A program made the translations under genes and the position numbers. A stretch of DNA of 14,524 bases from Chlamydiia bacterium (GTDB taxonomy: Bacteria > Chlamydiota > Chlamydiia > Chlamydiales > Parachlamydiaceae): NCBI GenBank assembly GCA_038257035.1, contig JBBSJT010000059.1:1-14524 (forward strand), written 5' to 3'. Numbering within the stretch: the stretch's first letter is position 1; each line of letters starts with the position of its first letter. Shown in pieces: positions 1-13,677 of this stretch. The notes beneath the pieces are model-generated. The model had not been told where the DNA came from. It saw nothing but the letters and a program-made list of their open reading frames with translations, and did not search any database.

Positions 1-179
1 AAAGCAGGCCTTCAGCCTGCGATCGTAACGCACTGATACCTAGGGCGTTGCCCTAGGCTATTATAAGCCAGGGCTTTGCCCTGAAAAATCGTCTTCCAGG
101 CTGAAGGCCTGGTTTTTAATAGCCTAGGGCATCGCCCTAGGTATGATATTGTATAAAATGCAGGCTGTAGGCCTGCTTT
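1..179. repeat. REPIN-like inverted doublet of CCTAGGGC-N3-GCCCTAGG REP units (may extend beyond the window start)
   Basis: 1-20 AAAGCAGGCCTTCAGCCTGC is the reverse complement of 160-179 with 1 mismatch; hairpins CCTAGGGCGTTGCCCTAGG (39-57) and CCTAGGGCATCGCCCTAGG (123-141) lie in opposite orientation; extra small hairpin CAGGGCTTTGCCCTG (69-83). Same motifs recur at 10060-10571. Confidence 0.85.
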
Positions 180-316: not shown

Positions 317-2029
317 TTATTGTCTCCGATATTGTTGCAGAAATTTACGTCGTAGTAATCCACCGGGATCATCTTTGATGCGATCAAGCAGCCGATCATC
401 CATCTTTTTCTGAGTATCTTCTTTGGCTTCACAAGCCTCTTTGTTTTCCTGATCGTTACTTTCAGGCTCTTCTAGATCATCTTTTTGCTCATTATCATCA
501 TTTTCTTCATTCTTTTGCTGATCTTTATCAGGATTTTGTTTATCTTCATCTTCTTGGTCTTTTTGATTATTTTTATCTTTGGGGTTATCTTGATTATCGC
601 TTTTCTTTTGATTTTCTTGATCTGGTTTGTTTTGTTCCGATTGGTCCGGGTCGTTCTCTTTATTTGTCTCTTTTTTGTCTTGATTATCTTGATTCGACTT
701 TTCGTCTTTAGATTTTTGTTCCTCAATTAATTTCTTATTGAAAAGAGCATCTTCATGCTCAGGATCCATTTCAAGAACCTTTGAATAGGCGTTGAGTGCT
801 TCTTCAAAATCCCCTAATTTTGCTCGTGCCGTTCCATAATTATATAATCCATCTACCGAATCATTTTCTTTAAATAGTGCGGAAGCCGCTTCATATTCTT
901 CTAACTTATAATGAGCACAAGCTTTCCAGTCCGGATTTTCAAATAAATTTTTAGCTTCCTCATAATTATTTTCCTGAAACAAGGCTTCAGCTTTTTCATC
1001 GTTGGATTCAAAAAGGCTTCCAAAACAAATGTGTGGAATAAATATCAGCGACAACAAAATGCCTCTTCGAAATAAAAGAGAGATAAAGGGCAATGCAATA
1101 AGTACAAGTAAATAACCTTGGTCCTGCCATTTTTTAGCCCCCATTTTGGACTCATCCTTTTTTACATTCGATTGATTACTGAATTCTTTGGCAAGCAATA
1201 GGACATCGCTATCGTCTACTTTTAAATCGAGGTAAAGCCCATTACCATTTGCTAATTTTTTTAAATTTTTAACTGGTAATTTTGTTGTTAAAATGCCACC
1301 TTTTGCATCTTTCAAGAAGCCCCCCGCCGGATTCAAAACAGGTGTTGGATTTTCGGTTCCAACTCCAAGAATTGATAATTTAAACTTGAGCTTTTGAATC
1401 AAGTCCAAAGATTTAGTCAAATCATCGTCTGATAATTGTGATGTGATCAGCAAGATAGAGCCATTTATAACCCCTGCTTGGTTAAGTAATTCCGATGCTT
1501 TTTGGAGGGCTTTTGTAACATTGTGCCCCCTTGATGGCATGATGCTCGTATCTAAGGCAGATAACTGAGATTGAATCGTTGCATGATCGTCCGTTAAGGG
1601 AGTGACCATGAAGGGATTGGCAGAAAAAACAAGCAATGCCGTCTGACTGCCCTTTCTTTGTTCTAGAATGTCATTAATCTTGTAGATAGCACGCTTTAAT
1701 CTTGATGGCTTGATATCTTCTGAATTCATTGCGTCTGATAGGTCTAAAGCAATAACAAGCCCGTCTCTTGGTTTAAAAACGGGTTGAAAAGACTCCTTCC
1801 AAGAGGGGCCTGCCATTGCAGTAACCAACCATGAAAAAAGAGCAAACATAAAAAACGAAAAAGATAAATTTTTTTTTGTTTTTTTAACAATGACATAAGG
1901 CAAAAGTTCTTTTGAGCAAATTTTGTCCCAGCAGCTTCTGTTCTTTTTTCGCAAAAATAAGATCAGCCCCAATATCAGCGGTATAAAGAGATAAAAAAAA
2001 TAAGGACGTAAAAAATGAAGTTCATTCAT
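317..2029 (-). CDS. batB: BatB-like membrane protein: VWA domain + TPR + acidic/Q/K-rich low-complexity linker
   Basis: N-term MNELHFLRP plus TM segments, AMAGPSW, VWA (LDLSDAM...DIKPSRLKRA...TPLTDD), WQDQGY motif, TPR (YNYGTARAKLGDFEEALNAYSKVLEMDPEHEDALFN), C-term DDPGGLLRRKF. ATG at 2029 overlaps the batA stop (ATGA), so it is preferred to the track start 2092. Confidence 0.88.
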   Translation of the reverse strand: MNELHFLRPYFFYLFIPLILGLILFLRKKNRSCWDKICSKELLPYVIVKKTKKNLSFSFFMFALFSWLVTAMAGPSWKESFQPVFKPRDGLVIALDLSDAMNSEDIKPSRLKRAIYKINDILEQRKGSQTALLVFSANPFMVTPLTDDHATIQSQLSALDTSIMPSRGHNVTKALQKASELLNQAGVINGSILLITSQLSDDDLTKSLDLIQKLKFKLSILGVGTENPTPVLNPAGGFLKDAKGGILTTKLPVKNLKKLANGNGLYLDLKVDDSDVLLLAKEFSNQSNVKKDESKMGAKKWQDQGYLLVLIALPFISLLFRRGILLSLIFIPHICFGSLFESNDEKAEALFQENNYEEAKNLFENPDWKACAHYKLEEYEAASALFKENDSVDGLYNYGTARAKLGDFEEALNAYSKVLEMDPEHEDALFNKKLIEEQKSKDEKSNQDNQDKKETNKENDPDQSEQNKPDQENQKKSDNQDNPKDKNNQKDQEDEDKQNPDKDQQKNEENDDNEQKDDLEEPESNDQENKEACEAKEDTQKKMDDRLLDRIKDDPGGLLRRKFLQQYRRQ

Positions 2030-2991
2030 ATAACCTTTAAGCGATAAAAAATTAATAAAAATGAGCCTACTAATGCAAAGATAAGCGGCCAATAGTAGAG
2101 AGTGACAATCGGAATATAATGTTGATTTGATTCACGACTTTCCAAACGATCAATTTCCTTATAAATTTGATCAAGCTCTTTTGTATTATAAGCTCGGAAA
2201 TATTTTCCGCCTGTTTTATCTGCCATTGATTTTAAAGCTTTTTCGTCAATATCTCCTGACGTTGCCATTCCTGCAAATTGCGGCCGACCATTATTCTTAG
2301 AACCAATGGCCACTGTATGAATTTTTAAATTGGCGTTAGCGGCAATTTGGGCAGCTTTTTCAGGCGTTAAATTCCCGGTGTTGTTGTTACCGTCTGTTAG
2401 TAAAATTAAAACTCTTGATGCAACCGAGCTATCTTTTAAATGTTTGATCGCAAGTCCAACCGCATCTCCAATAGCGGTTTCAGTTCCTGCAAGTCCAAGC
2501 TCCGTTTCTTTAAGCAATTGTTTTACGGCAATGCGATCAAATGTTAAGGGGGCTTGCAAATAAACTTCACTGCCAAATAAAACGAGGCCTATGCGATCGC
2601 CATGTCTTCTGTCAATAAAGTCACTTGCCATCAATTTCAAAGCTGATAATCGGTCCATGTATTTGCCATTAACGACAAAATCCTTAATTTGCATGCTGCC
2701 CGAAAGATCTACTGCAAGCATGATGTCTCTACCCTCTTCCGTTAACTGAATCGGCTCGCCAATAAATTCCGGATTTGCAGCAGAAATTAAAAACAGTCCC
2801 CATGTTAAAATACTTAAAATGGAAAGTGGCTTTGATAAGACTCTTGGTTTCTTAAAAGAAAATCCGGAAAAATCTTTAAAATCAGGCACTTTTAAGGCGA
2901 CGCTTATCTCTTCCTTTTTTGGAAAAAAACGATATACAAGCCATGGAAGAGGCAATAGCAAGAAAACTTGAGGAAAACCAAACTGGATCAT
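2026..2991 (-). CDS. batA: BatA-like VWA domain membrane protein
   Basis: GRDIMLAVDLSGSM (intact MIDAS DxSxS), DRIGLVLFG, QAPLTFD, TAIGDA, LILLTDG, TGGKYFRA; N- and C-terminal TM segments. ATG at 2991 overlaps the upstream stop (ATGA). Confidence 0.92.
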   Translation of the reverse strand: MIQFGFPQVFLLLPLPWLVYRFFPKKEEISVALKVPDFKDFSGFSFKKPRVLSKPLSILSILTWGLFLISAANPEFIGEPIQLTEEGRDIMLAVDLSGSMQIKDFVVNGKYMDRLSALKLMASDFIDRRHGDRIGLVLFGSEVYLQAPLTFDRIAVKQLLKETELGLAGTETAIGDAVGLAIKHLKDSSVASRVLILLTDGNNNTGNLTPEKAAQIAANANLKIHTVAIGSKNNGRPQFAGMATSGDIDEKALKSMADKTGGKYFRAYNTKELDQIYKEIDRLESRESNQHYIPIVTLYYWPLIFALVGSFLLIFYRLKVI

Positions 2992-3458
2992 AATGTATTT
3001 ACCCATCTTGATGTAAGCTTCAGCAATTCAACAACTTGAGATTTATCAACCTTTGGTTGATAGGGTGATGTCAATAAAAGCTTTCCTACCCCCTGGCTAA
3101 ACTCATTAGAATTTAAGGGCTTATCAAGAAGCTGTAACCAGGCTACACCTGTTAAACCGGCGTTATTTTCGCTTTTACTTAAGACCAATCTACGTAAAAA
3201 AGCGGATAAATCTGCCATGCATTTCGCGGCGTTTTCGGTATTTTGAAAATTTTCTTCAATGCTTTGCAAAATTTCTTTTGCTTGTTTTTTTAAAGTGGGT
3301 CTTAAAATCCATCTAGTCATTTTACGAATCGCGAAAAAAGCTAAAATCAAAAAAACCAATGCAACAATAAAAATGGTTATATATAAAAACCATGGCATTG
3401 ATGAAACGCTTTGAGGCAAATGAATATCTCTTAAAGGTAATTCTATTTTTTCATTCAT
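2988..3458 (-). CDS. DUF4381-family small membrane protein of moxR/bat operons
   Basis: LPLRDIHLP..VS..PW N-terminal signature, one TM helix, LS.FLRR, AGLTG.AWL..LD and PYQ motifs; canonical position between DUF58 and batA. Confidence 0.85.
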   Translation of the reverse strand: MNEKIELPLRDIHLPQSVSSMPWFLYITIFIVALVFLILAFFAIRKMTRWILRPTLKKQAKEILQSIEENFQNTENAAKCMADLSAFLRRLVLSKSENNAGLTGVAWLQLLDKPLNSNEFSQGVGKLLLTSPYQPKVDKSQVVELLKLTSRWVNTL

Positions 3459-4381
3459 CTAAATTCATTCTTTAAAAATGTTAAAGCATCTTCTTCTGTA
3501 GAGCATTCCATAAAATGAGCTTTAGTTTTACTGCAAAGCTCACTAAGTCCTTTTTTTCGCTCTAAAAACAACTTTTGATATTGCTCTAAAAAATTTTTAT
3601 CATACCCATCAATTCTTATTTGTTGATTTTGGTCACAGATTGGATAACTTCCATTTTTCGGGAAACTTACCTCTAGAGCATCATAAACAAGAATCAGATA
3701 AAGCTTTGTGGATAAAGCTATTTGCATCAGTAAACTTTTGGCATAAGAAGAAAGATAACGAAAGTCACTGATGATAAAACATAAGGTTCCTGCAGTTGCC
3801 ATGCACTTAACTTTTTCAATAGCTTTATCCAAGACAGCTTCTTTTAATTCTTCAGAAACGCTACTTTTATGATGCTGACCTGATTGATTTTCAAGTTCAT
3901 GCAAAATTGGCAATAAACCTTTTTTTCCAAGTCTAGGGGCTATTTCAATAAAAGCATTTTCATCAAAAATTAATCCGCCGATCTGATCCCCTTTTAAAGC
4001 TGCATGCCACCCAATATTTGCTGCAATCAATGCGGTTTGTACGGTTTTGAAAACGCCTTTTGTTGCAAAGTACATGTTGGATCTCATGTCGATTGAAACA
4101 ATCACTTTCCTGGTTCTTTCCGCAGTAAAAAGCTTTGTGTGTGCCTTTCCTGTCCTTGCAGTTACTTTCCAATCAATGTTTCTAACATCATCGCCTGCAT
4201 AATAACGACGGCTTTCAGCAAATTCCATCCCTCTTGCAAGGAGCTTTGTTTGCTGCTCTCCGACCAGATGATTTTTTGCTTTAAGTTTAGAAAGGCAAAA
4301 CATTTTACTATTTTTTTTTAGCTGCAACAACTCATCCAAAGTAACAAAAACTGCTGATTTTGTAGCTGTTTCCATCATCAT
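3455..4381 (-). CDS. DUF58-family (VWA-like) MoxR partner
   Basis: GMEFAESRRYYAGDDVRNIDWKVTARTGKAHTKLF signature, IISDF motif; directly downstream of moxR with ATGA overlap. Confidence 0.93.
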   Translation of the reverse strand: MMMETATKSAVFVTLDELLQLKKNSKMFCLSKLKAKNHLVGEQQTKLLARGMEFAESRRYYAGDDVRNIDWKVTARTGKAHTKLFTAERTRKVIVSIDMRSNMYFATKGVFKTVQTALIAANIGWHAALKGDQIGGLIFDENAFIEIAPRLGKKGLLPILHELENQSGQHHKSSVSEELKEAVLDKAIEKVKCMATAGTLCFIISDFRYLSSYAKSLLMQIALSTKLYLILVYDALEVSFPKNGSYPICDQNQQIRIDGYDKNFLEQYQKLFLERKKGLSELCSKTKAHFMECSTEEDALTFLKNEFR

Positions 4382-5403
4382 GGCACCGGCACGCGTCTGA
4401 TGAGTTCATCAATAAATTTATCTTGTGTAATCCCTTCAGCCTCAGCTTTATAAGACAAAATTACACGGTGACGAAGAACATCATGTGCCATTGCCTGCAC
4501 ATGGTCCGGGCCTACAAAATCTGAACCTTCCAAAAAGGCAAGAGCTTTTGCAGCTCTTGCAAGACAAATCCCACCGCGTGGGCTTGCACCAAATTGCACG
4601 TAATTGGCAATGTCTTTGCCATAATTTTTTGGGTTTCGTGTAGCAGCAATCAGTTGTATGATGTATTCTTGAATGTTTTTTGCCATATAAACATCTAAAA
4701 CTGCCTCTCTTGCTAGCAGAAGATCTGATTGAGAGAGTTTTTCCGGCATCGTAAGCTTAGCAAATGGCTTTTGGTTATATTCATTTTTCGCTTCACCTAA
4801 AACAAGACTCAACATTTCCATTTCTTTTTCAGGCGATGGATAATCAACATTAACTTTCAAAAGAAAACGATCCAACTGCGCTTCAGGAAGCGGATAAGTC
4901 CCTTCTTGTTCTATTGGGTTTTGTGTGGCCATCACTAAAAAGAGCTTTGGCAATGTATAAGTTTTTTTTCCAACGGTAATTTGTCTTTCGGCCATAGCTT
5001 CCAGTAAAGCGGACTGAACTTTTGCAGGAGCACGATTGATTTCATCTGCCAAAATTAAATTATGGAAAATGGGTCCTTGCTGAAACTCGAAAGTACCTGT
5101 TTCCATTCTGTAAATTTCTGTTCCAATTAAATCTGCAGGCAATAAATCGGGGGTGAATTGCAAACGGTGAAAGCTTGAATCAATAGCAGAACAAAGCATT
5201 TTAATTGCACGTGTTTTAGCAAGGCCTGGAGCTCCTTCAACAAGCAAATGGCCATCGGCCAATAGTGCTATCATCAAGCTTCTTACAAGATCTTCCTGTC
5301 CGATAATCATTTTATTTAGGAATTGAATAACCTCTTGGATAGGTTCTAAAAGCTGTTTATTTCGATTAACCTTTTTTACATCATCTATTTGACAATCTAT
5401 CAT
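4378..5403 (-). CDS. moxR: MoxR-family AAA+ ATPase
   Basis: Walker A GAPGLAKT, RLQFTPDLLPADLIG, Walker B LADEINRAPAKVQSALLEAM, ATQNPIEQEGTYPLPEAQLDRF, GASPR. ATG at 5403 is preceded by a GGAGG Shine-Dalgarno; the track start 5418 is the alternative. Confidence 0.96.
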   Translation of the reverse strand: MIDCQIDDVKKVNRNKQLLEPIQEVIQFLNKMIIGQEDLVRSLMIALLADGHLLVEGAPGLAKTRAIKMLCSAIDSSFHRLQFTPDLLPADLIGTEIYRMETGTFEFQQGPIFHNLILADEINRAPAKVQSALLEAMAERQITVGKKTYTLPKLFLVMATQNPIEQEGTYPLPEAQLDRFLLKVNVDYPSPEKEMEMLSLVLGEAKNEYNQKPFAKLTMPEKLSQSDLLLAREAVLDVYMAKNIQEYIIQLIAATRNPKNYGKDIANYVQFGASPRGGICLARAAKALAFLEGSDFVGPDHVQAMAHDVLRHRVILSYKAEAEGITQDKFIDELIRRVPVP

Positions 5404-5500
5404 AATGTTTACCTCCATAAAGCACTAGCTTTTATCAAAAACCTATACCTTTTTTCAAGTCTTTTTTTTGGATGCGACCGTTGTTGATGATTTTTTTTAC

Positions 5501-7216: not shown

Positions 7217-8173
7217 TTAACCATTCTTGCAGTGGGGCTTACATTCACCTCTATTCCACCAAAATAAATCTGTTTGTCTATGACAAGTTCCTAAAGGCCC
7301 TAATTCCCTATTTACAATTTCGAAAAGTTTATCATAATGGTCTAATTGCTTTTTTGGTAAAAATTTTAGAAGTTCTGCCATATACCATTCTCCATATTGG
7401 TCCATCTCTGTTTCAGCAATATAAACTGTTTTTATGCATTGATTGGTTTTTATAACTTCAACGATTGTTTGAATATCCGCATATTCCCACTTATCAAGTA
7501 TTAATTTTAATGTTTTAAGTGTCTGACTTTCCTCAATTGCCTCTTTTAACACTATAAAGGATTTGTTCAATGATGTGCCAAAAGCCTTTAATGAAAGATA
7601 TGTGGCATTAAGTAAATTTTTCTTTAACATTTTAGATACTAGCATCGTGGTCTTATAATCAACTAATCCTTTAACAGAATGAATGCAAATTTCACCGCGT
7701 TCAAAATTTTTCTTAATTACTTGGATGGGCAAATATTTATCCTCGTAAAAAGTATGCGAATCCATTAATTCTAAAAAAGTAAACCACTCCCTATTGACAA
7801 AATTAGAGCAAATAGAGTCTCGTAATGCTTGGCATTTTTCAGTGGAATAATTTTGAGCAATTTTTATCTTTTCCTTAAGAGCATTATAATTCTTGGGAAG
7901 CCCAATCCACTTGAATTTATCTGTTACCTTTTCCTCAAGATTACAAAGAATATTTTCTAAATTTTTTTGGGTTCTTTCAAGATTTGCTTCTCCTACACGT
8001 TTTACATTTTTTAGGCTTGTTGATTCAAGCGACCAAACATCTTGTATGGGTAAAATACTCATTACTACTTTTAAGATATCATTTGGCAGTCTAGCGATAT
8101 GATCATCACCAACAGCAACGTCGGTTCCCAAAACTTCTGGCATACTATAAGACAAGAAATCTGATAGATTCAT
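7217..8173 (-). CDS. F-box-like / RNI-LRR-like putative effector, array paralogue 2
   Basis: IARLPNDILKVVMSILPIQDVWSLESTS; NYSTEKCQALRDSIC; LKEAIEESQTLKTLKL, IKTNQCIKTVYIAE, NRELGP; AGAGG SD. Confidence 0.75.
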   Translation of the reverse strand: MNLSDFLSYSMPEVLGTDVAVGDDHIARLPNDILKVVMSILPIQDVWSLESTSLKNVKRVGEANLERTQKNLENILCNLEEKVTDKFKWIGLPKNYNALKEKIKIAQNYSTEKCQALRDSICSNFVNREWFTFLELMDSHTFYEDKYLPIQVIKKNFERGEICIHSVKGLVDYKTTMLVSKMLKKNLLNATYLSLKAFGTSLNKSFIVLKEAIEESQTLKTLKLILDKWEYADIQTIVEVIKTNQCIKTVYIAETEMDQYGEWYMAELLKFLPKKQLDHYDKLFEIVNRELGPLGTCHRQTDLFWWNRGECKPHCKNG

Positions 8174-8956: not shown

Positions 8957-9964
8957 TTAATACCGTTTCCAAGTCACGGTATTCCAATAACGAAAAATGT
9001 TAGTTGATATTGGTCCTAATTGGTCAATCATGATGTTGGTTAATTTGCTGATATGACGACTTTGGAACCATGAGTAACTCTCAGGGTGCTTCCAGGATGC
9101 TGCAAACTGGCTGTAGTAATCCATGTTCTTTTCATCAATATCAATTCTATTAATTCGTTCAATTTTTTTGACCGTTTCAAGGATTATGATTAAATGATTG
9201 AGATTCCAGTCTTGAATTTGAATAGATAATTCCTGAATCGAATGATTATTTTGAAGTGCTTTGAAAAGTAAATTCAAGAATTTTTCATTCAATGGACCTT
9301 TCTTTTCTTTACAGTCAATGTCGATCTCAAGCCTTTTTGGTATTAAAGCATTAATTGTTAATGCTTTCAGATGTAGATTATAGTATAGATGTTCCTTATA
9401 GTCCTGGTAATAGCATTTTAATGATTTTCTATCTTCAAAGAACTCTTTTAAAATTTGAATGGATAACTTAAAATCAATATCAAAAAAAGCCTCCGAATTC
9501 TCATATGTGTAAGCGAAAAAACTATAAACCCTTCTTTGAAGATCGAAGGTTTTGATATCCCATTGCTTATCTAAAAGAATGAAGCAAATGGCATTTCTCA
9601 AAATCTGAATGCGTTCTTCTGAATAGTTTTTCAGGCTTTTAGCTTTTTCAAGATAGTTAGAAATATCCGGCTCAAATACTAAATCTTTTAAATAAGAATT
9701 TAGTTCACGTCTATTTAAAATAAGATCTTCTAATTTTTTTTGCGTATCTGCATTGATTAAGAGCGCAGTCACAGGCCGTATTTTTGGCACCGCTATATGG
9801 AGGGCTTTCATATCCTTCACAGGTAATTTGGACGCGAGAACCATAAAAATGTCGGGGATCATTTCTGAAAAATAATCCTTTTCATAAACGATTTCCAACC
9901 CTCTTTTTTGTGCAGGAGTCCTTGTGTCATAGGAAAAAAACCAATTAAATGCATCAACGATCAT
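8957..9964 (-). CDS. F-box-like / RNI-LRR-like putative effector, array paralogue 3
   Basis: FSEMIPDIFMVLASKLPVKDMKAL (degenerate F-box); INADTQKKLE; NYSEERIQILRNAIC; IDFKLSIQ; LFKALQNNHSIQELSI; IDQLGP; terminal VTWKR. ATG at 9964 preferred to GTG 9997, which lies inside the predicted promoter. Confidence 0.75.
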   Translation of the reverse strand: MIVDAFNWFFSYDTRTPAQKRGLEIVYEKDYFSEMIPDIFMVLASKLPVKDMKALHIAVPKIRPVTALLINADTQKKLEDLILNRRELNSYLKDLVFEPDISNYLEKAKSLKNYSEERIQILRNAICFILLDKQWDIKTFDLQRRVYSFFAYTYENSEAFFDIDFKLSIQILKEFFEDRKSLKCYYQDYKEHLYYNLHLKALTINALIPKRLEIDIDCKEKKGPLNEKFLNLLFKALQNNHSIQELSIQIQDWNLNHLIIILETVKKIERINRIDIDEKNMDYYSQFAASWKHPESYSWFQSRHISKLTNIMIDQLGPISTNIFRYWNTVTWKRY

Positions 9965-9989
9965 AATAAACCCAAATTTTTTAAACAGA

Positions 9990-10018
9990 AGAATCACACT
10001 TCATGCATTAATTGTAAA
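9990..10018 (-). promoter_or_regulatory. Putative promoter of paralogue 3
   Basis: TTTACA-N17-GATTCT on the minus strand, same position as in sister paralogues; weak -10. Confidence 0.35.
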
Positions 10019-10059
10019 TCATTGTTAGTGTTAGAGTGTCAAGAGTATCAATAATTATT

Positions 10060-10571
10060 AACGCCCTAGGTGTCTTTTAGACCACTTGCAGGCTGCAAGC
10101 CTTCATTATAAAACTACTCAAAATAGATTAATAATCATAAAGGAGGCCTACAGCTTGAAAGCAGTTGAATGTAAGACCTAGGGCGTTGCCCAATGTCATC
10201 AAGTTAAGAAAGTTTTATAAGTTAAAGGGCATTTTGATACTTTTATGTTTATGAAGACCGAAGGTCTTAAATTGCAACAGCCTAGGGCACCGCCCTAGGA
10301 GCTAATAATTAAACTATGCAGCCTGTAGGGCTGCAATAAAACCACCTCTTGCAGGCCTTCAGCATGAATTTTTAAATGATAACACACCTAGGGCGTTGCC
10401 CTAGGCTGTTGCAATTTAAGACCTTCGGTCTACAAGACATGTCTATTTGTTATTTCTAAATTCCTAAGTTGACGACATTGGGGGTGCCCTAGGCATTTAT
10501 AAACCAGGGCTTTGCCCTGAAGAAAATATAAAACGTAAAACCCAAGGCTTTTATAATCCAGGGCATGCCCT
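10060..10571. repeat. Cluster of CCTAGGGC REP-like units (outer, degenerate REPIN interrupted by an insertion)
   Basis: ACGCCCTAGGTGTCTT (from 10061) is inverted to AAGACCTAGGGCGT (from 10173); 10142-10190 joined to 10489-10521 rebuilds the unit seen at 4-85; further GGGCATGCCC at 10561-10570. Confidence 0.8.
10191..10480. mobile_element. 290-bp MITE-like element with IS4-like 20-bp TIRs, carrying an internal REP doublet
   Basis: Left end CAATGTCATCAAGTTAAGAA vs reverse complement of right end CAATGTCGTCAACTTAGGAA (17/20); flanks GGGCGTTGCC | GGGGTGCC look like a decayed target duplication; internal 45-bp inverted repeat 10255-10299 / 10387-10431 with 1 mismatch; no ORF in the track. Confidence 0.75.
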
Positions 10572-10607
10572 CAAAAACAATATTACTCTTTAACAGAAAC
10601 AAGATTG

Positions 10608-11507
10608 TCATAAATTTAGCCGTTTCCAGCTCCAGCTACGATCTGTGGAATTAAATTTGCTTGAACGAAATCCTAATTGATTGTTAATTACTTTTTCTAA
10701 CTCATCAATCTGTGGGCTTCTTCCAAACCAACCAAAACTCTTAAACTTAGTATTATTTTCTAAAATTTTAATTTTTTTAATGCTTTTATTATTTTTTATT
10801 ACTGCTAGAATATCATTTAAATCGTCGTCACACCAATTCCAAACATTAAAAACAACCTCATTGATCGATTTATTTTTTTCTAAAGCCTTTAAGATCACTT
10901 TTAAAATTTTTTCATCCAAATTATTTCTTGTACTTGAATTTGTAATTCTAATTTCAAGAAGGCTGGGTTTTAGTTCGTTCGTCGCTAGTAAATCCATATA
11001 GAGGGTAAATTTCTTTTCCTCAGGGAAGTCACTATAATTGCATTTGATTGAAGATTCACATTCTTTAATTTTCACCATTTGAACTGCTAATTTATAATCC
11101 AAATTAAAGCACTGAAACCATTTTATCATAATCCTAGCAGAAGCACTACTTCGTATCACCTGAGAATTAATAGTGCCATCATGCGGTCTCTTTAGTATTT
11201 TATATTCATCCTCAAACAACGAACAAATTGCATTTCTTAAAACTTGAATTCTCCCCTCTGAATAATTTGGATATTTTTGAGCTATAGATAAATAAAGGGA
11301 AAGCTCCGATTTTTTTAACACAAGATCTTCCAATTTCATTTGAGTATTTGCATTGATGAAAGGTTGTGTAATCGGCAACATTTGGGAACAGGTTGCGCCA
11401 AATGCCTTAACAGCGTTAATTGGTAACTCATTTGTTATCAGCGTTAAGGTTTCCATGGGAAGCACTGAGAAGAAATTTAGTTTATTTTGCTTGTTACATA
11501 TATTCAT
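10608..11507 (-). CDS. F-box-like / RNI-LRR-like putative effector, array paralogue 4
   Basis: FSVLPMETLTLITNELPINAVKAFGATC; INANTQMKLE; NYSEGRIQVLRNAIC; LDYKLAVQ; ILKALEKNKSINEV; IKNNKSIKKIKILE; INNQLG; WSWKR; AAGGA SD. Confidence 0.78.
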   Translation of the reverse strand: MNICNKQNKLNFFSVLPMETLTLITNELPINAVKAFGATCSQMLPITQPFINANTQMKLEDLVLKKSELSLYLSIAQKYPNYSEGRIQVLRNAICSLFEDEYKILKRPHDGTINSQVIRSSASARIMIKWFQCFNLDYKLAVQMVKIKECESSIKCNYSDFPEEKKFTLYMDLLATNELKPSLLEIRITNSSTRNNLDEKILKVILKALEKNKSINEVVFNVWNWCDDDLNDILAVIKNNKSIKKIKILENNTKFKSFGWFGRSPQIDELEKVINNQLGFRSSKFNSTDRSWSWKRLNL

Positions 11508-11897: not shown

Positions 11898-12752
11898 CTA
11901 TTTAAACCAAGTCCAACTGATATCGTGACGTGCCACTCTCATTCCTATTTGGTGAAGGATAATTATGTCCAATTCGCTATGATGGGAACTTAATGCTTCT
12001 CGTTCCTTATGCGTTGAAAACTCATTGCCCACCTCAGAAATTATGCCGTAGATAATTCGACTTTTAGTTTTAACGACTTGTAAAATTTCTTTTAAATCGT
12101 TTGGATTCCAGTTATTGGCATTGAGAAACAATTTACAAATAGATTTATTTTTTTGGAGTGTTTTTAAAATCAAGTTCAAGATTTCTTTATCCAACGGAAT
12201 TTCTATTTTATCATCCTTAACAAAATTAATTTCAAGGGATGATGGTTTCATTTCATTGTTGCCAATAACATCCATTGTTGAAATAAACAATTTGTTATCG
12301 TAACAATGGTGATAGATACATTTAATGAATGATGAGTTATTGATAATTTTTACTATTTGAGTAGTCAATTTGTATTCAAGGTTCTTGCACATAGACCAGT
12401 TGTAGCTATTATCGATGTGACGATCAAGTTCTACTATCTCGTTTTTACCTGCAGCTGGCCAAAAAAATTGGGAGCAAATGGTATCCCTTAAAAATTGAAT
12501 TTTATTTTCTGTATTGTTTGTGAAGCCTTTAGCTATTTCAATTTTAGAACAAATAGCGGGTCTGGTTAAAATATATTTTTCTAAAGCGTTTATAGTGTCT
12601 GCATTGATGAACTGCTGTGTGATACGGTGCAGATGGTAACATGTGGTATGAAGTTGCTTTACAGCTTTAATGGGTAATTGGGATGCTATGTGTGTTAGAA
12701 CTTCCGAAGCTAATTCAGATAGATTCGACGTTTGACAATTACAAATGTTCAT
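11898..12752 (-). CDS. F-box-like / RNI-LRR-like putative effector, array paralogue 5
   Basis: Start MNICN (ATG 12752, AAGGA 5 nt upstream) equals the start of paralogue 4; LSELASEVLTHIASQLPIKAVKQLHTTC; INADT; ENKIQFLRDTIC; LEYKLTTQ; ILKTLQKNKSICKL; LHQIG; SWTWFK. Confidence 0.75.
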   Translation of the reverse strand: MNICNCQTSNLSELASEVLTHIASQLPIKAVKQLHTTCYHLHRITQQFINADTINALEKYILTRPAICSKIEIAKGFTNNTENKIQFLRDTICSQFFWPAAGKNEIVELDRHIDNSYNWSMCKNLEYKLTTQIVKIINNSSFIKCIYHHCYDNKLFISTMDVIGNNEMKPSSLEINFVKDDKIEIPLDKEILNLILKTLQKNKSICKLFLNANNWNPNDLKEILQVVKTKSRIIYGIISEVGNEFSTHKEREALSSHHSELDIIILHQIGMRVARHDISWTWFK

Positions 12753-13677
12753 GTGCATCCTTAATATTTCTTTCAAAAGTCCATTCGTTGCCACTTTGTA
12801 TAACTTTAGTTCCTAATTGATCATTAATGACTGTATTTAATTCCATCATGTGATCCTCATGCATTTTAAAAAATATTCCATGGTGTTTGAAATTCCATTG
12901 CCACATATCAAAAGCTTCTGAAATGATAAGGGTGTTTATCTTTTCATTCTTTTTTATTACAGTTAATATTTTATTTAAATCCGATTTATTCCACTCTTTG
13001 TTTTTAAGATTTACCTTGTGAAGATAGGGGTTTTTTAATGCTCTTAAAAGGATTGACATAATTTTTTCATCTAAAGGATTTCCTCCCCCGTAGATCTCAA
13101 ATTTCATTGATTTAGGACTGATTTGATTTTTTGCTAACAAATCCATGGTTAAGAAGAAACGTTTTTGAAGATATTGGTTTTTGTAACTGTATTTGCAAGG
13201 ATAATCTGAATCTTCATGCACAATTTTGAAGAGTTGAGTTGCTAATTTGTAGTCAAAATCACCATATTCCAATAATTTAACTAACACAGACTCTGTCGTT
13301 TGCCTTAATTCTCCATCATAATCACTATTTCCAAGATATATTAGCTTCTCCTCAAAACTGGAGCAAAAGGCATCTCTCAAAGTTTGAATTCTTGCTTCTG
13401 AATAGGCTGGTTGGGCATTAGATTTTTCAATAAAGTAAAATAAATTTTTATTACCCTGTATAGCATTTTCCAAAATCATTTGTATTTTTGCATTTATAAT
13501 TGGTTGTGCTATCGGTTGAAATTTATGTGAAACAGTATGAAGTGTCCTCACATTGTTTATTGGAAGTTGTTGGACTATTAGGCCTAAAACATCTTCAGGC
13601 AGTTTAGAAAAACAATCATTTTGGTCACTTTTTGGTAAAAAAGGAAGGATTGTTGAAAGTGTATTGTAAATATACAT
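12739..13677 (-). CDS. F-box-like / RNI-LRR-like putative effector, array paralogue 6
   Basis: FSKLPEDVLGLIVQQLPINNVRTLHTVSHKF (best F-box match); YSEARIQTLRDAFC; FDYKLATQ; LLRALKNPYLHKVNL; IKKNEKINTLIISE; INDQLG; GGAG SD. Confidence 0.8.
   Translation of the reverse strand: MYIYNTLSTILPFLPKSDQNDCFSKLPEDVLGLIVQQLPINNVRTLHTVSHKFQPIAQPIINAKIQMILENAIQGNKNLFYFIEKSNAQPAYSEARIQTLRDAFCSSFEEKLIYLGNSDYDGELRQTTESVLVKLLEYGDFDYKLATQLFKIVHEDSDYPCKYSYKNQYLQKRFFLTMDLLAKNQISPKSMKFEIYGGGNPLDEKIMSILLRALKNPYLHKVNLKNKEWNKSDLNKILTVIKKNEKINTLIISEAFDMWQWNFKHHGIFFKMHEDHMMELNTVINDQLGTKVIQSGNEWTFERNIKDAHEHL

Follow-up and report, generated by a model that had tools for sequence, protein, structure and literature searches.

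An IS4-derived miniature element with REPIN cargo inside a REP hairpin of a Parachlamydiaceae genome

In contig JBBSJT010000059.1 of a Chlamydiia bacterium (Parachlamydiaceae; assembly GCA_038257035.1), which was analysed over its whole stretch of 14,524 nucleotides (the window), an element of 290 bp at positions 10191–10480 interrupts the centre of a repetitive extragenic palindromic (REP) hairpin. With a probability of about 0.8 we read it as a transposable element of the miniature inverted-repeat type (MITE) that derives from an insertion sequence (IS) of the IS4 family, carries a REP doublet forming hairpin (REPIN) and was moved as a composite by a DDE transposase. The source genome, G000 in the following, has 2.37 Mb in 210 contigs with 36% G+C, and the window is its contig C59.

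Structure of the element and its insertion site

The terminal inverted repeats (TIRs) that had been proposed from the sequence alone (the sequence-only reading) agree at 17 of 20 positions (coordinates of all features are given in Table 1), and a repeat search lengthens them to 22-nt arms of 86%. The inner inverted hairpin pair described in the same reading was recovered as two 48-nt arms that are 96% complementary and separated by a gap of 87 nt. In both arms a D hairpin (AAGACCGAAGGTCTT) is joined to a B hairpin by a linker of 15 nt, and two A-type hairpins lie between the arms. The interrupted target is itself a B hairpin, a palindrome of the form CCTAGGGC-N3-GCCCTAGG, whose halves stand directly outside the element (CCTAGGGCGTTGCC on the left, GGGGTGCCCTAGGC on the right) and whose central 10 nt are duplicated. 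Removal of the element together with positions 10481–10488 restores offsets of 35 nt from A to B and 11 nt from B to C; these are the claimed values and those of the intact unit at 4–83. We speak of a MITE where an element is shorter than about 400 bp, has no transposase gene, shares the TIRs of an autonomous element, is flanked by a target duplication and occurs in several copies. The element at 10191–10480 has 290 bp, no open reading frame (ORF) of 80 aa or more, TIRs shared with an IS, a decayed 10-bp duplication and several copies.

Folded as single-stranded DNA, a region of 318 nt reaches −88.4 kcal/mol (z = −13.9), and none of 100 shuffled sequences folded equally well. A regular expression for the end motif found 11 ends in G000, so the TIR pair is not unique; with at most one mismatch there were 12 matches, and the reversed control gave none. 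With 12 matches against none in the control, and with this z value of the fold, the structure at 10191–10480 is not due to chance, and what the sequence-only reading had observed holds in all its details. The additional one-mismatch match, at C48:16842, has no hairpin flank.

The parent IS4-family insertion sequence

The ends of 10191–10480 belong to an IS4-family IS that is native to Parachlamydiaceae and whose closest named relative is ISPa1635. A complete IS with such ends, the existence of which the sequence-only reading had made a condition of its proposal, lies in the related genome G015 (L012, 1446–2944): it measures 1,499 bp, has the TIRs CAATGGCATTAACTTAAA and CAATGGTGTTAACTTAAG and contains a single ORF of 445 aa, which matches PF01609 with an E value of 8.9e-12 and NF033592 (NCBIfam, IS4 family) with 130.3 bits at a cut-off of 115. 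A Y-(2)-R-(3)-E-(6)-K motif in the C-terminal catalytic region is the signature of IS4-family transposases; this spacing, Y-x2-R-x3-E-x6-K, fits both YFKRWGTEENYKFFK in G015 and YFKRWGAEENYKFFK on contig C38 of G000. The parent element has CAATG tips and direct duplications of 10–11 bp, and IS4-family elements are recognized by a CA start and duplications of about 9–13 bp.

A second metagenome-assembled genome has a copy of 1,501 bp whose ends match the G000 contigs C89 and C38. C38 begins inside the IS and retains the last 140 codons (including YFKRWGAEENYKFFK) plus the right end GTTAAGTTAATGACATTG; C89 begins 101 bp inside the opposite, left end. A second copy of the C-terminal transposase fragment was not found in G000, and a search with the full transposase gave no match in G002. 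The end motif is held by 17 of the 41 genomes searched, mostly of the same family. The existence of a cognate DDE transposase family is demonstrated, and full-length elements and MITEs of this family have such ends in common. We rejected one further candidate source in G000, a 610-aa DDE_Tnp_1 protein at C175:512–2344 (−) on a contig of 2.6 kb, which has no CAATG-type ends.

Target choice and target duplications

All 11 ends in G000 abut one half of a hairpin, as had been expected from the window element: seven are of the B type and four of the type GGCT-TT-AGCC. The 64 perfect B hairpins of G000 amount to about 1.2 kb of the genome, and insertions in REP palindromes are far more frequent than chance would give. 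Sixteen B half-hairpins without an exact second half were listed, seven of which are cut by an IS4-type end and nine of which are point variants or contig ends; no other element interrupts a B hairpin among these 16.

We read the target duplications of copies with both ends intact. They are perfect in G000 on C14 (GGGCAACGCCC, 11 bp) and C24 (GCCTTTAGGC, 10 bp), in seven of the eight copies read in G020 (10–11 bp), in three of the four read in G022 (11 bp, in the same B hairpin) and in the one copy read in G002 (GGCACGTGTC). The duplication always comprises the loop and 3–4 bp of each stem arm, so that the cuts are placed symmetrically on either side of the dyad. Recent copies were inserted at the dyad of short G+C-rich palindromes by staggered cuts 10–11 bp apart. 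Tn10, too, has a symmetrical consensus at its targets. For Tn5 such a consensus is described in the account of REP-targeting IS elements in PMC1525189.

The copies at C14:23085–23240 and C24:2071–2226 represent a REP-free MITE of 156 bp; they are 99.4% identical and occupy two different hairpin types. This identity and the perfect duplications of 11 and 10 bp show that the 156-bp MITE was recently active. In sequencing run X3 (unrelated soil), three contigs at the loose end before 10391 join AAGTTAAGTTAATGACATTG straight to a B-D unit, so that the junction of an IS in a B hairpin is present in another sample.

The REPIN cargo and the RAYT genes

The interior of the MITE is a REPIN, in which two REP units of the order D-B-A stand inverted to each other. 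Contig C24 of the sister species G002 contains a 150-aa Y1_Tnp gene (PF01797, E 1.2e-28) between D-B-A and A-B-D, which is the order found inside the MITE. Genes for REP-associated tyrosine transposases (RAYTs), to which the sequence-only reading had pointed as the usual partners of REPs, are present in G000 as well: there are nine Y1_Tnp matches at seven loci, and the RAYT gene on C105 has C-B-A on one side and A-B-C on the other, both of the same REP family. Doublets that stand free, C-B-A A-B-C for example, are found in other parts of that genome. The repeats thus have the properties of REPs and REPINs, being G+C-rich intergenic palindromes that form inverted doublets and also flank a RAYT gene, and the RAYT would be their putative mobilizing enzyme. 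In the MITE copies the two A hairpins are separated by 16 nt, and this sequence, AAGAxxxxxxTTTAT(G/T), resembles the stretch AAGAGAGCATTATG that leads into the start codon of the G002 RAYT gene, a hint that would fit an origin by deletion of the RAYT.

The RAYT-like loci of G000 lie on C105, C29, C119, C7, C25, C48 and C68; at least four of the matches are flanked by palindromic repeats of their own that differ from each other, and the copies on C7 and C25 look broken. Chlamydial symbiont genomes hold several REP-RAYT systems. At C131:5088–5278, 25 nt behind an IS4-type end, stands a palindromic repeat of another kind, about 165 bp long (with the ends GCTAATTTGGAGTGCGG), which has at least five free copies elsewhere; the contig stops before any second TIR. 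The B-D units of the window element, 10254–10299 (−) and 10387–10432 (+), match the Acido-Lenti-1 RNA of Rfam (RF01687) with 22.9 and 18.2 bits at a gathering score of 37, and an Rfam search over 9900–10700 gave sub-threshold matches only; the Acido-Lenti-1 motif may itself be a REP-like repeat.

Copies of the composite in the source genome

A BLAST search with the 290 bp returned two long relatives in G000, at C1:48593–48838 and C52:15271–15497, both of which carry the same REP doublet, as the sequence-only reading had expected of further copies. Aligned with C59, they share the end, a subterminal spacer and the order D-B-A-A-B-D. Of the four intact ends, the left one of C59 has a spacer of about 45 nt, and the other three have one of 27 nt. 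The two halves of the element are not identical, one having GCAGGCTGAAGG and CCTGCAAG and the other GCAGCCTGTAGGGCTGC, and both kinds of half occur in all three copies. The TIR is kept beside the first kind in C1 and beside the second in C52, and C59 keeps both. At its other end C52 still reads GCCATTG, and behind this come a B half in degenerate form and then a C hairpin; the other end of C1 is degenerate. The halves of C1 and C52 are 90% and 95% identical, and BLAST aligns the two copies at 92% over 209 bp. Six of the eight units of D, linker and B in G000 sit in C59, C1 and C52.

Contigs of three sequencing runs included none that spans the element and showed no joint across it; in run X2 one contig of 151 nt covers the junction of the right TIR and its flank with one difference. 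Two pattern scans for the junction of end, spacer, D and B gave no match in metagenome contigs. Judging from copies that are 99–100% identical at different sites, the sister subfamilies are probably mobile.

Related elements in other genera

MITEs with the same ends and with different REPINs occur in two other genera. G020 has a MITE of 333 bp, of which eight copies were read, six of them 97–100% identical; the copies on C19 and C21 are 100% identical and lie in different hairpins with different duplications. Its interior consists of two inverted copies of a 115-bp unit which, at 82–86% identity, also flanks the RAYT gene at G020:C2:38747–39532, a locus without IS4-type ends. An IS4-type end is present at nine of the 12 non-RAYT loci of the G020 REP motif; at one of the other three (G020:C4) the REPIN lies in the centre of an unrelated palindrome of ATGGAC repeats without such ends. 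In the G020 MITE the subterminal sequences on the left and on the right cease to be alike after about 27 nt, as is also the case for the left and right ends of the IS. G022 has a MITE of 293 bp in four complete copies that are 88–97% identical, and its REPIN core is also found seven times without IS4-type ends; a RAYT search in this genome (73% complete) gave no match. We considered the interiors in G020 and G022 as sequence private to the MITEs and rejected this, as the units flank a RAYT gene in G020 and occur without IS4-type ends in G022.

Relatives of other sizes were observed as well. Elements of 66–67 bp at G015:C217:6531–6597 and G023:C4:24932–24997 are nothing more than a single A-like hairpin with a 25-nt end on each side. 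At G020:C8:4072–4711 (L061), an element of 640 bp with CAATGGCGTCAACTTAAT ends contains a 137-aa PDDEXK_3 gene (E 1.7e-38), and the target of this subgroup is the palindrome GTACATGTTCAC.

Proposed origin and alternative explanations

The order of events that we propose starts from a short ancestral MITE, which a REPIN would have entered. The hairpin hit in the window is the B member of a REP unit with the order A-B-C, a family that flanks a RAYT gene elsewhere in G000. The composite would then have been moved as one unit by a DDE transposase acting in trans, giving the three copies in G000, and composites formed independently would account for the eight and four copies in the two other genera; REPINs would in this way acquire, besides the RAYT, a second driver of another kind. 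As a speculation, the palindromic MITE could extrude a single-stranded apex well suited as a target for the HUH enzyme with its specificity for single strands, and this might have let the REPIN in; single-stranded intermediates are described for IS200/IS605 elements (PMC6006769).

A number of observations weigh against this reading. The duplication at C59 is imperfect, the right copy having decayed to 8 nt, and C1 and C52 each retain a single intact TIR. From B to A, C59 shows 78–83% identity to C1 and C52, and free REP units reach up to 82%. Because C59 is no closer to these two copies than to free REPs, its common descent with them is argued from architecture and not from identity. In G000 the route gave three old copies only, and among 73 genomes of the family the pattern of end, spacer, D and B located the C59-type composite in G000 only. 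Empty sites in related strains, which the sequence-only reading had named as a check, did not turn up: such a site would read as an uninterrupted CCTAGGGCGTTGCCCTAGG, and when the flanking DNA (8957–11507) was compared with G001 and G002, its REP part alone matched. The two flanking ORFs have no relatives in five related genomes. The middle of the IS is absent from the G000 assembly, and a search with the full transposase found none in the assemblies of G020 (79% complete) and G022 (73% complete). The insertions at C1 and L074 are flanked by repeats with an inverted, not a direct, loop. Furthermore, the way of the REPIN into the MITE is a proposal, and no insertion was seen inside a MITE-borne hairpin. 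Of the claims made from the sequence alone, that of a non-autonomous, DDE-mobilized element with its own target as cargo is supported, all the refuting conditions set in that reading having turned out in favour of it, and the recursive nesting that was to follow from it was not observed and stands as a possibility. The inverted loops were read as TTT on one flank and AAA on the other, in the C1:48593 region of G000 and at L074 805–2305, and suggest recombination between copies, or inversion. Tobes & Pareja (PMC1525189) attributed hybrid flanks to recombination between copies.

A single accident, in which a dead IS remnant at this site received a REP doublet by insertion or recombination and the composite never transposed as a unit, could explain the age of the C59 copy (TIRs at 17/20, decayed duplication), a REP part that is no nearer to C1 and C52 than to free REPs, and the restriction of the composite to one genome among the 73. 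This explanation is already disfavoured and appears very unlikely to us: C1 and C52 repeat the order, the spacing and the asymmetry of the halves at other loci, each of them in a hairpin target, and G020 has near-identical REPIN-bearing copies with perfect duplications. We also considered the reverse direction, namely that the hairpins are the native interior of the MITE and that free REPs and REPINs are decayed MITEs, so that the cargo would not be a captured RAYT-type element. IS4-type ends at nine of the 12 non-RAYT loci of the G020 REP are in keeping with this, and MITEs of the family fold back on themselves anyway, the one of 156 bp with 71% self-complementarity. Nevertheless, the RAYT genes of G000 (C105), G002 (C24) and G020 (C2) stand between the same units and have no ends of the IS4 type in their vicinity, just five or six of the 64 perfect B hairpins of G000 lie in the three MITE copies, and the seven free REPIN cores of G022 lack such ends, all of which makes the reverse direction very improbable.

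The capture of the REPIN as in a composite transposon differs from our preferred explanation only in how the REPIN entered: two IS or MITE copies would have inserted in hairpins on either side of a REPIN, the outer ends would have moved the whole, and internal deletions would have followed. Paired insertions around a REPIN are expected from an IS that homes to REP clusters; ends of two elements do lie less than 100 bp apart at G020:C78 and G015:C7, and the same ends carry other cargo in the 640-bp G020 element with its PDDEXK_3 gene. We nevertheless regard this route as unlikely. A pair of matching deletions would have to be assumed for each of three lineages, no remnants of inner TIRs or half-hairpins are found between the subterminal spacer and the D hairpin, and the REPIN in the ATGGAC palindrome at G020:C4 shows that REPINs do enter the centres of palindromes. 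Least of all do we expect that a RAYT, as an HUH enzyme, moved the whole unit with the IS4-like ends as passive passengers. The nine RAYT-like matches at seven loci of G000 would provide such an enzyme, but the direct duplications of 10–11 bp start exactly at the CAATG tips, which is the signature of the staggered cut of a DDE enzyme, and the REP-free MITEs of C14 and C24 as well as the full-length IS have the same ends and the same targets.

Comparison with known systems

The nearest named relative of the parent element in a plasmid collection is ISPa1635, an IS4-family element of Pseudomonas plasmids, whose transposase is 31% identical to the 445-aa protein over 96% of its length. Its TIR starts with CAATGTCATCAAC (15/18 with the left end of the window element, counted by eye) and its duplication is 10 bp; it differs in being 1,637 bp long, compared with about 1,500 bp, and the single copy looked at occupies a site that is not a palindrome, GATTCCACCT. 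For E. coli IS4 the sequence-only reading had given the correct end: the K-12 ends are TAATGCCAGTCAGTTAAG and TAATGCCGATCAGTTAAG. E. coli IS4 ends, TAATGCC(A/G)(G/A)TCAGTTAAG, agree with the window end at 12/18 positions (again by eye), and the K-12 copy has a duplication of 12 bp. E. coli InsG is 23.7% identical to the 445-aa protein (E 3.9e-13), and for E. coli IS4 neither a MITE family nor REP targeting was seen. The mobile insertion cassettes of IS231 are IS4-family ends around foreign cargo that are mobilized in trans; compared with them, what is carried here is a mobile repeat in its own right and holds the target of the element, and the PDDEXK_3 relative in G020 is similar to the cassettes.

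REP targeting is established for the IS3, IS110, IS4, IS256 and IS5 families (PMC1525189, PMC3184786, as far as these describe it). ISRm22 of Sinorhizobium meliloti 1021 resembles the window element in its IS4-family membership, palindromic REP sites and direct repeats, and all nine of its nine copies are reported in REP elements (Tobes & Pareja 2006, PMC1525189). It belongs to a different phylum, and its description in the part of that paper used here, to which our comparison is limited, mentions no MITE derivative or REP cargo. IS1397 and ISKpn1 (IS3) and IS621 (IS110) also home to REP palindromes (Delihas 2011, PMC3184786); they have other transposase families and chemistry, and the sections of that article on which we draw describe no REP cargo. 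REPINs and RAYTs are established (PMC3116915, PMC3337134, PMC3733652), and the interior of the MITE, with two inverted REP units and a spacer, is like the REPIN-RAYT systems outlined by Bertels & Rainey (2011; PMC3116915, PMC3337134). Unlike those systems, the REPIN here is bracketed by DDE-type TIRs with 10–11-bp duplications, and for this reason we attribute the copying to the IS4-family transposase and not to a RAYT.

In the usual view, REPINs need a RAYT present in single copy and are passed on vertically. In Parachlamydiaceae they may have lodged at least three times between the ends of an IS4-family element that homes to REP hairpins, changing their driver, being amplified by a DDE transposase and carrying along fresh targets for the composite and its relatives, so that they could persist or move between genomes without a RAYT; we put forward this wider view tentatively, at a little short of even odds. 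If true, it would mean a RAYT-independent amplification route for REPINs and an easy path by which the nested, mosaic REP arrays of many genomes could arise. REP-targeting IS elements, IS4-derived MITEs and REPIN-RAYT systems are each already known. What appears to be new is their combination, a REPIN as cargo of a DDE-type MITE that targets the same kind of hairpin, in three genera and with three REPIN families. A literature search, with supplements outside its scope, found no paper on a REPIN as cargo of a DDE-type MITE and none mentioning REPs in Parachlamydiaceae.

Feature coordinates and neighbouring genes

Table 1. Positions in the window of the element, its host REP unit and an intact array used for comparison
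Feature	Positions	Strand	Evidence and remarks
Non-autonomous IS4-family element (MITE), 290 bp	10191..10480	.	TIRs, end family, foldback, ORF list
Left TIR CAATGTCATCAAGTTAAGAA	10191..10210	+	Repeat search; 15/18 with ISPa1635 end, 12/18 with E. coli IS4 end (both by eye)
Right TIR (reverse complement of CAATGTCGTCAACTTAGGAA)	10461..10480	-	Repeat search, end family
Left target duplication GGGCGTTGCC	10181..10190	.	Inside left half (10177-10190) of interrupted B hairpin
Decayed right duplication GGGGTGCC (10481-10488), then remaining B hairpin CTAGGC	10481..10494	.	
Left REPIN arm	10252..10299	+	D hairpin ~10254-10268, linker TTAAATTGCAACAGC, B hairpin 10281-10299
A-type REP hairpin GCAGCCTGTAGGGCTGC, 'type 2' half	10318..10334	.	
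Degenerate A-type hairpin GCAGGCCTTCAGCATG, 'type 1' half	10351..10366	.	
Right REPIN arm	10387..10434	-	B hairpin 10387-10405, linker, D hairpin ~10418-10432
Host REP unit, degenerate A-type hairpin GGAGGCCTACAGCTTG	10142..10157	.	35-nt offset to B as in intact unit
Host REP unit, C-type hairpin CCAGGGCTTTGCCCTG	10504..10519	.	
Intact REP array for comparison	4..176	.	A 4-20, B 39-57, C 68-83, A-like 96-112, B 123-141, A 160-176

Around the element lie ORFs of about 300–346 aa without a Pfam family, at 8957–9997 (−) and 10608–11507 (−), and others of this kind are found at 7217–8173 and 11898–12794. Further away, at 317–5418 (−), a run of genes resembles BatA/BatB VWA proteins together with an AAA ATPase, with all matches under the curated NCBIfam cut-offs.

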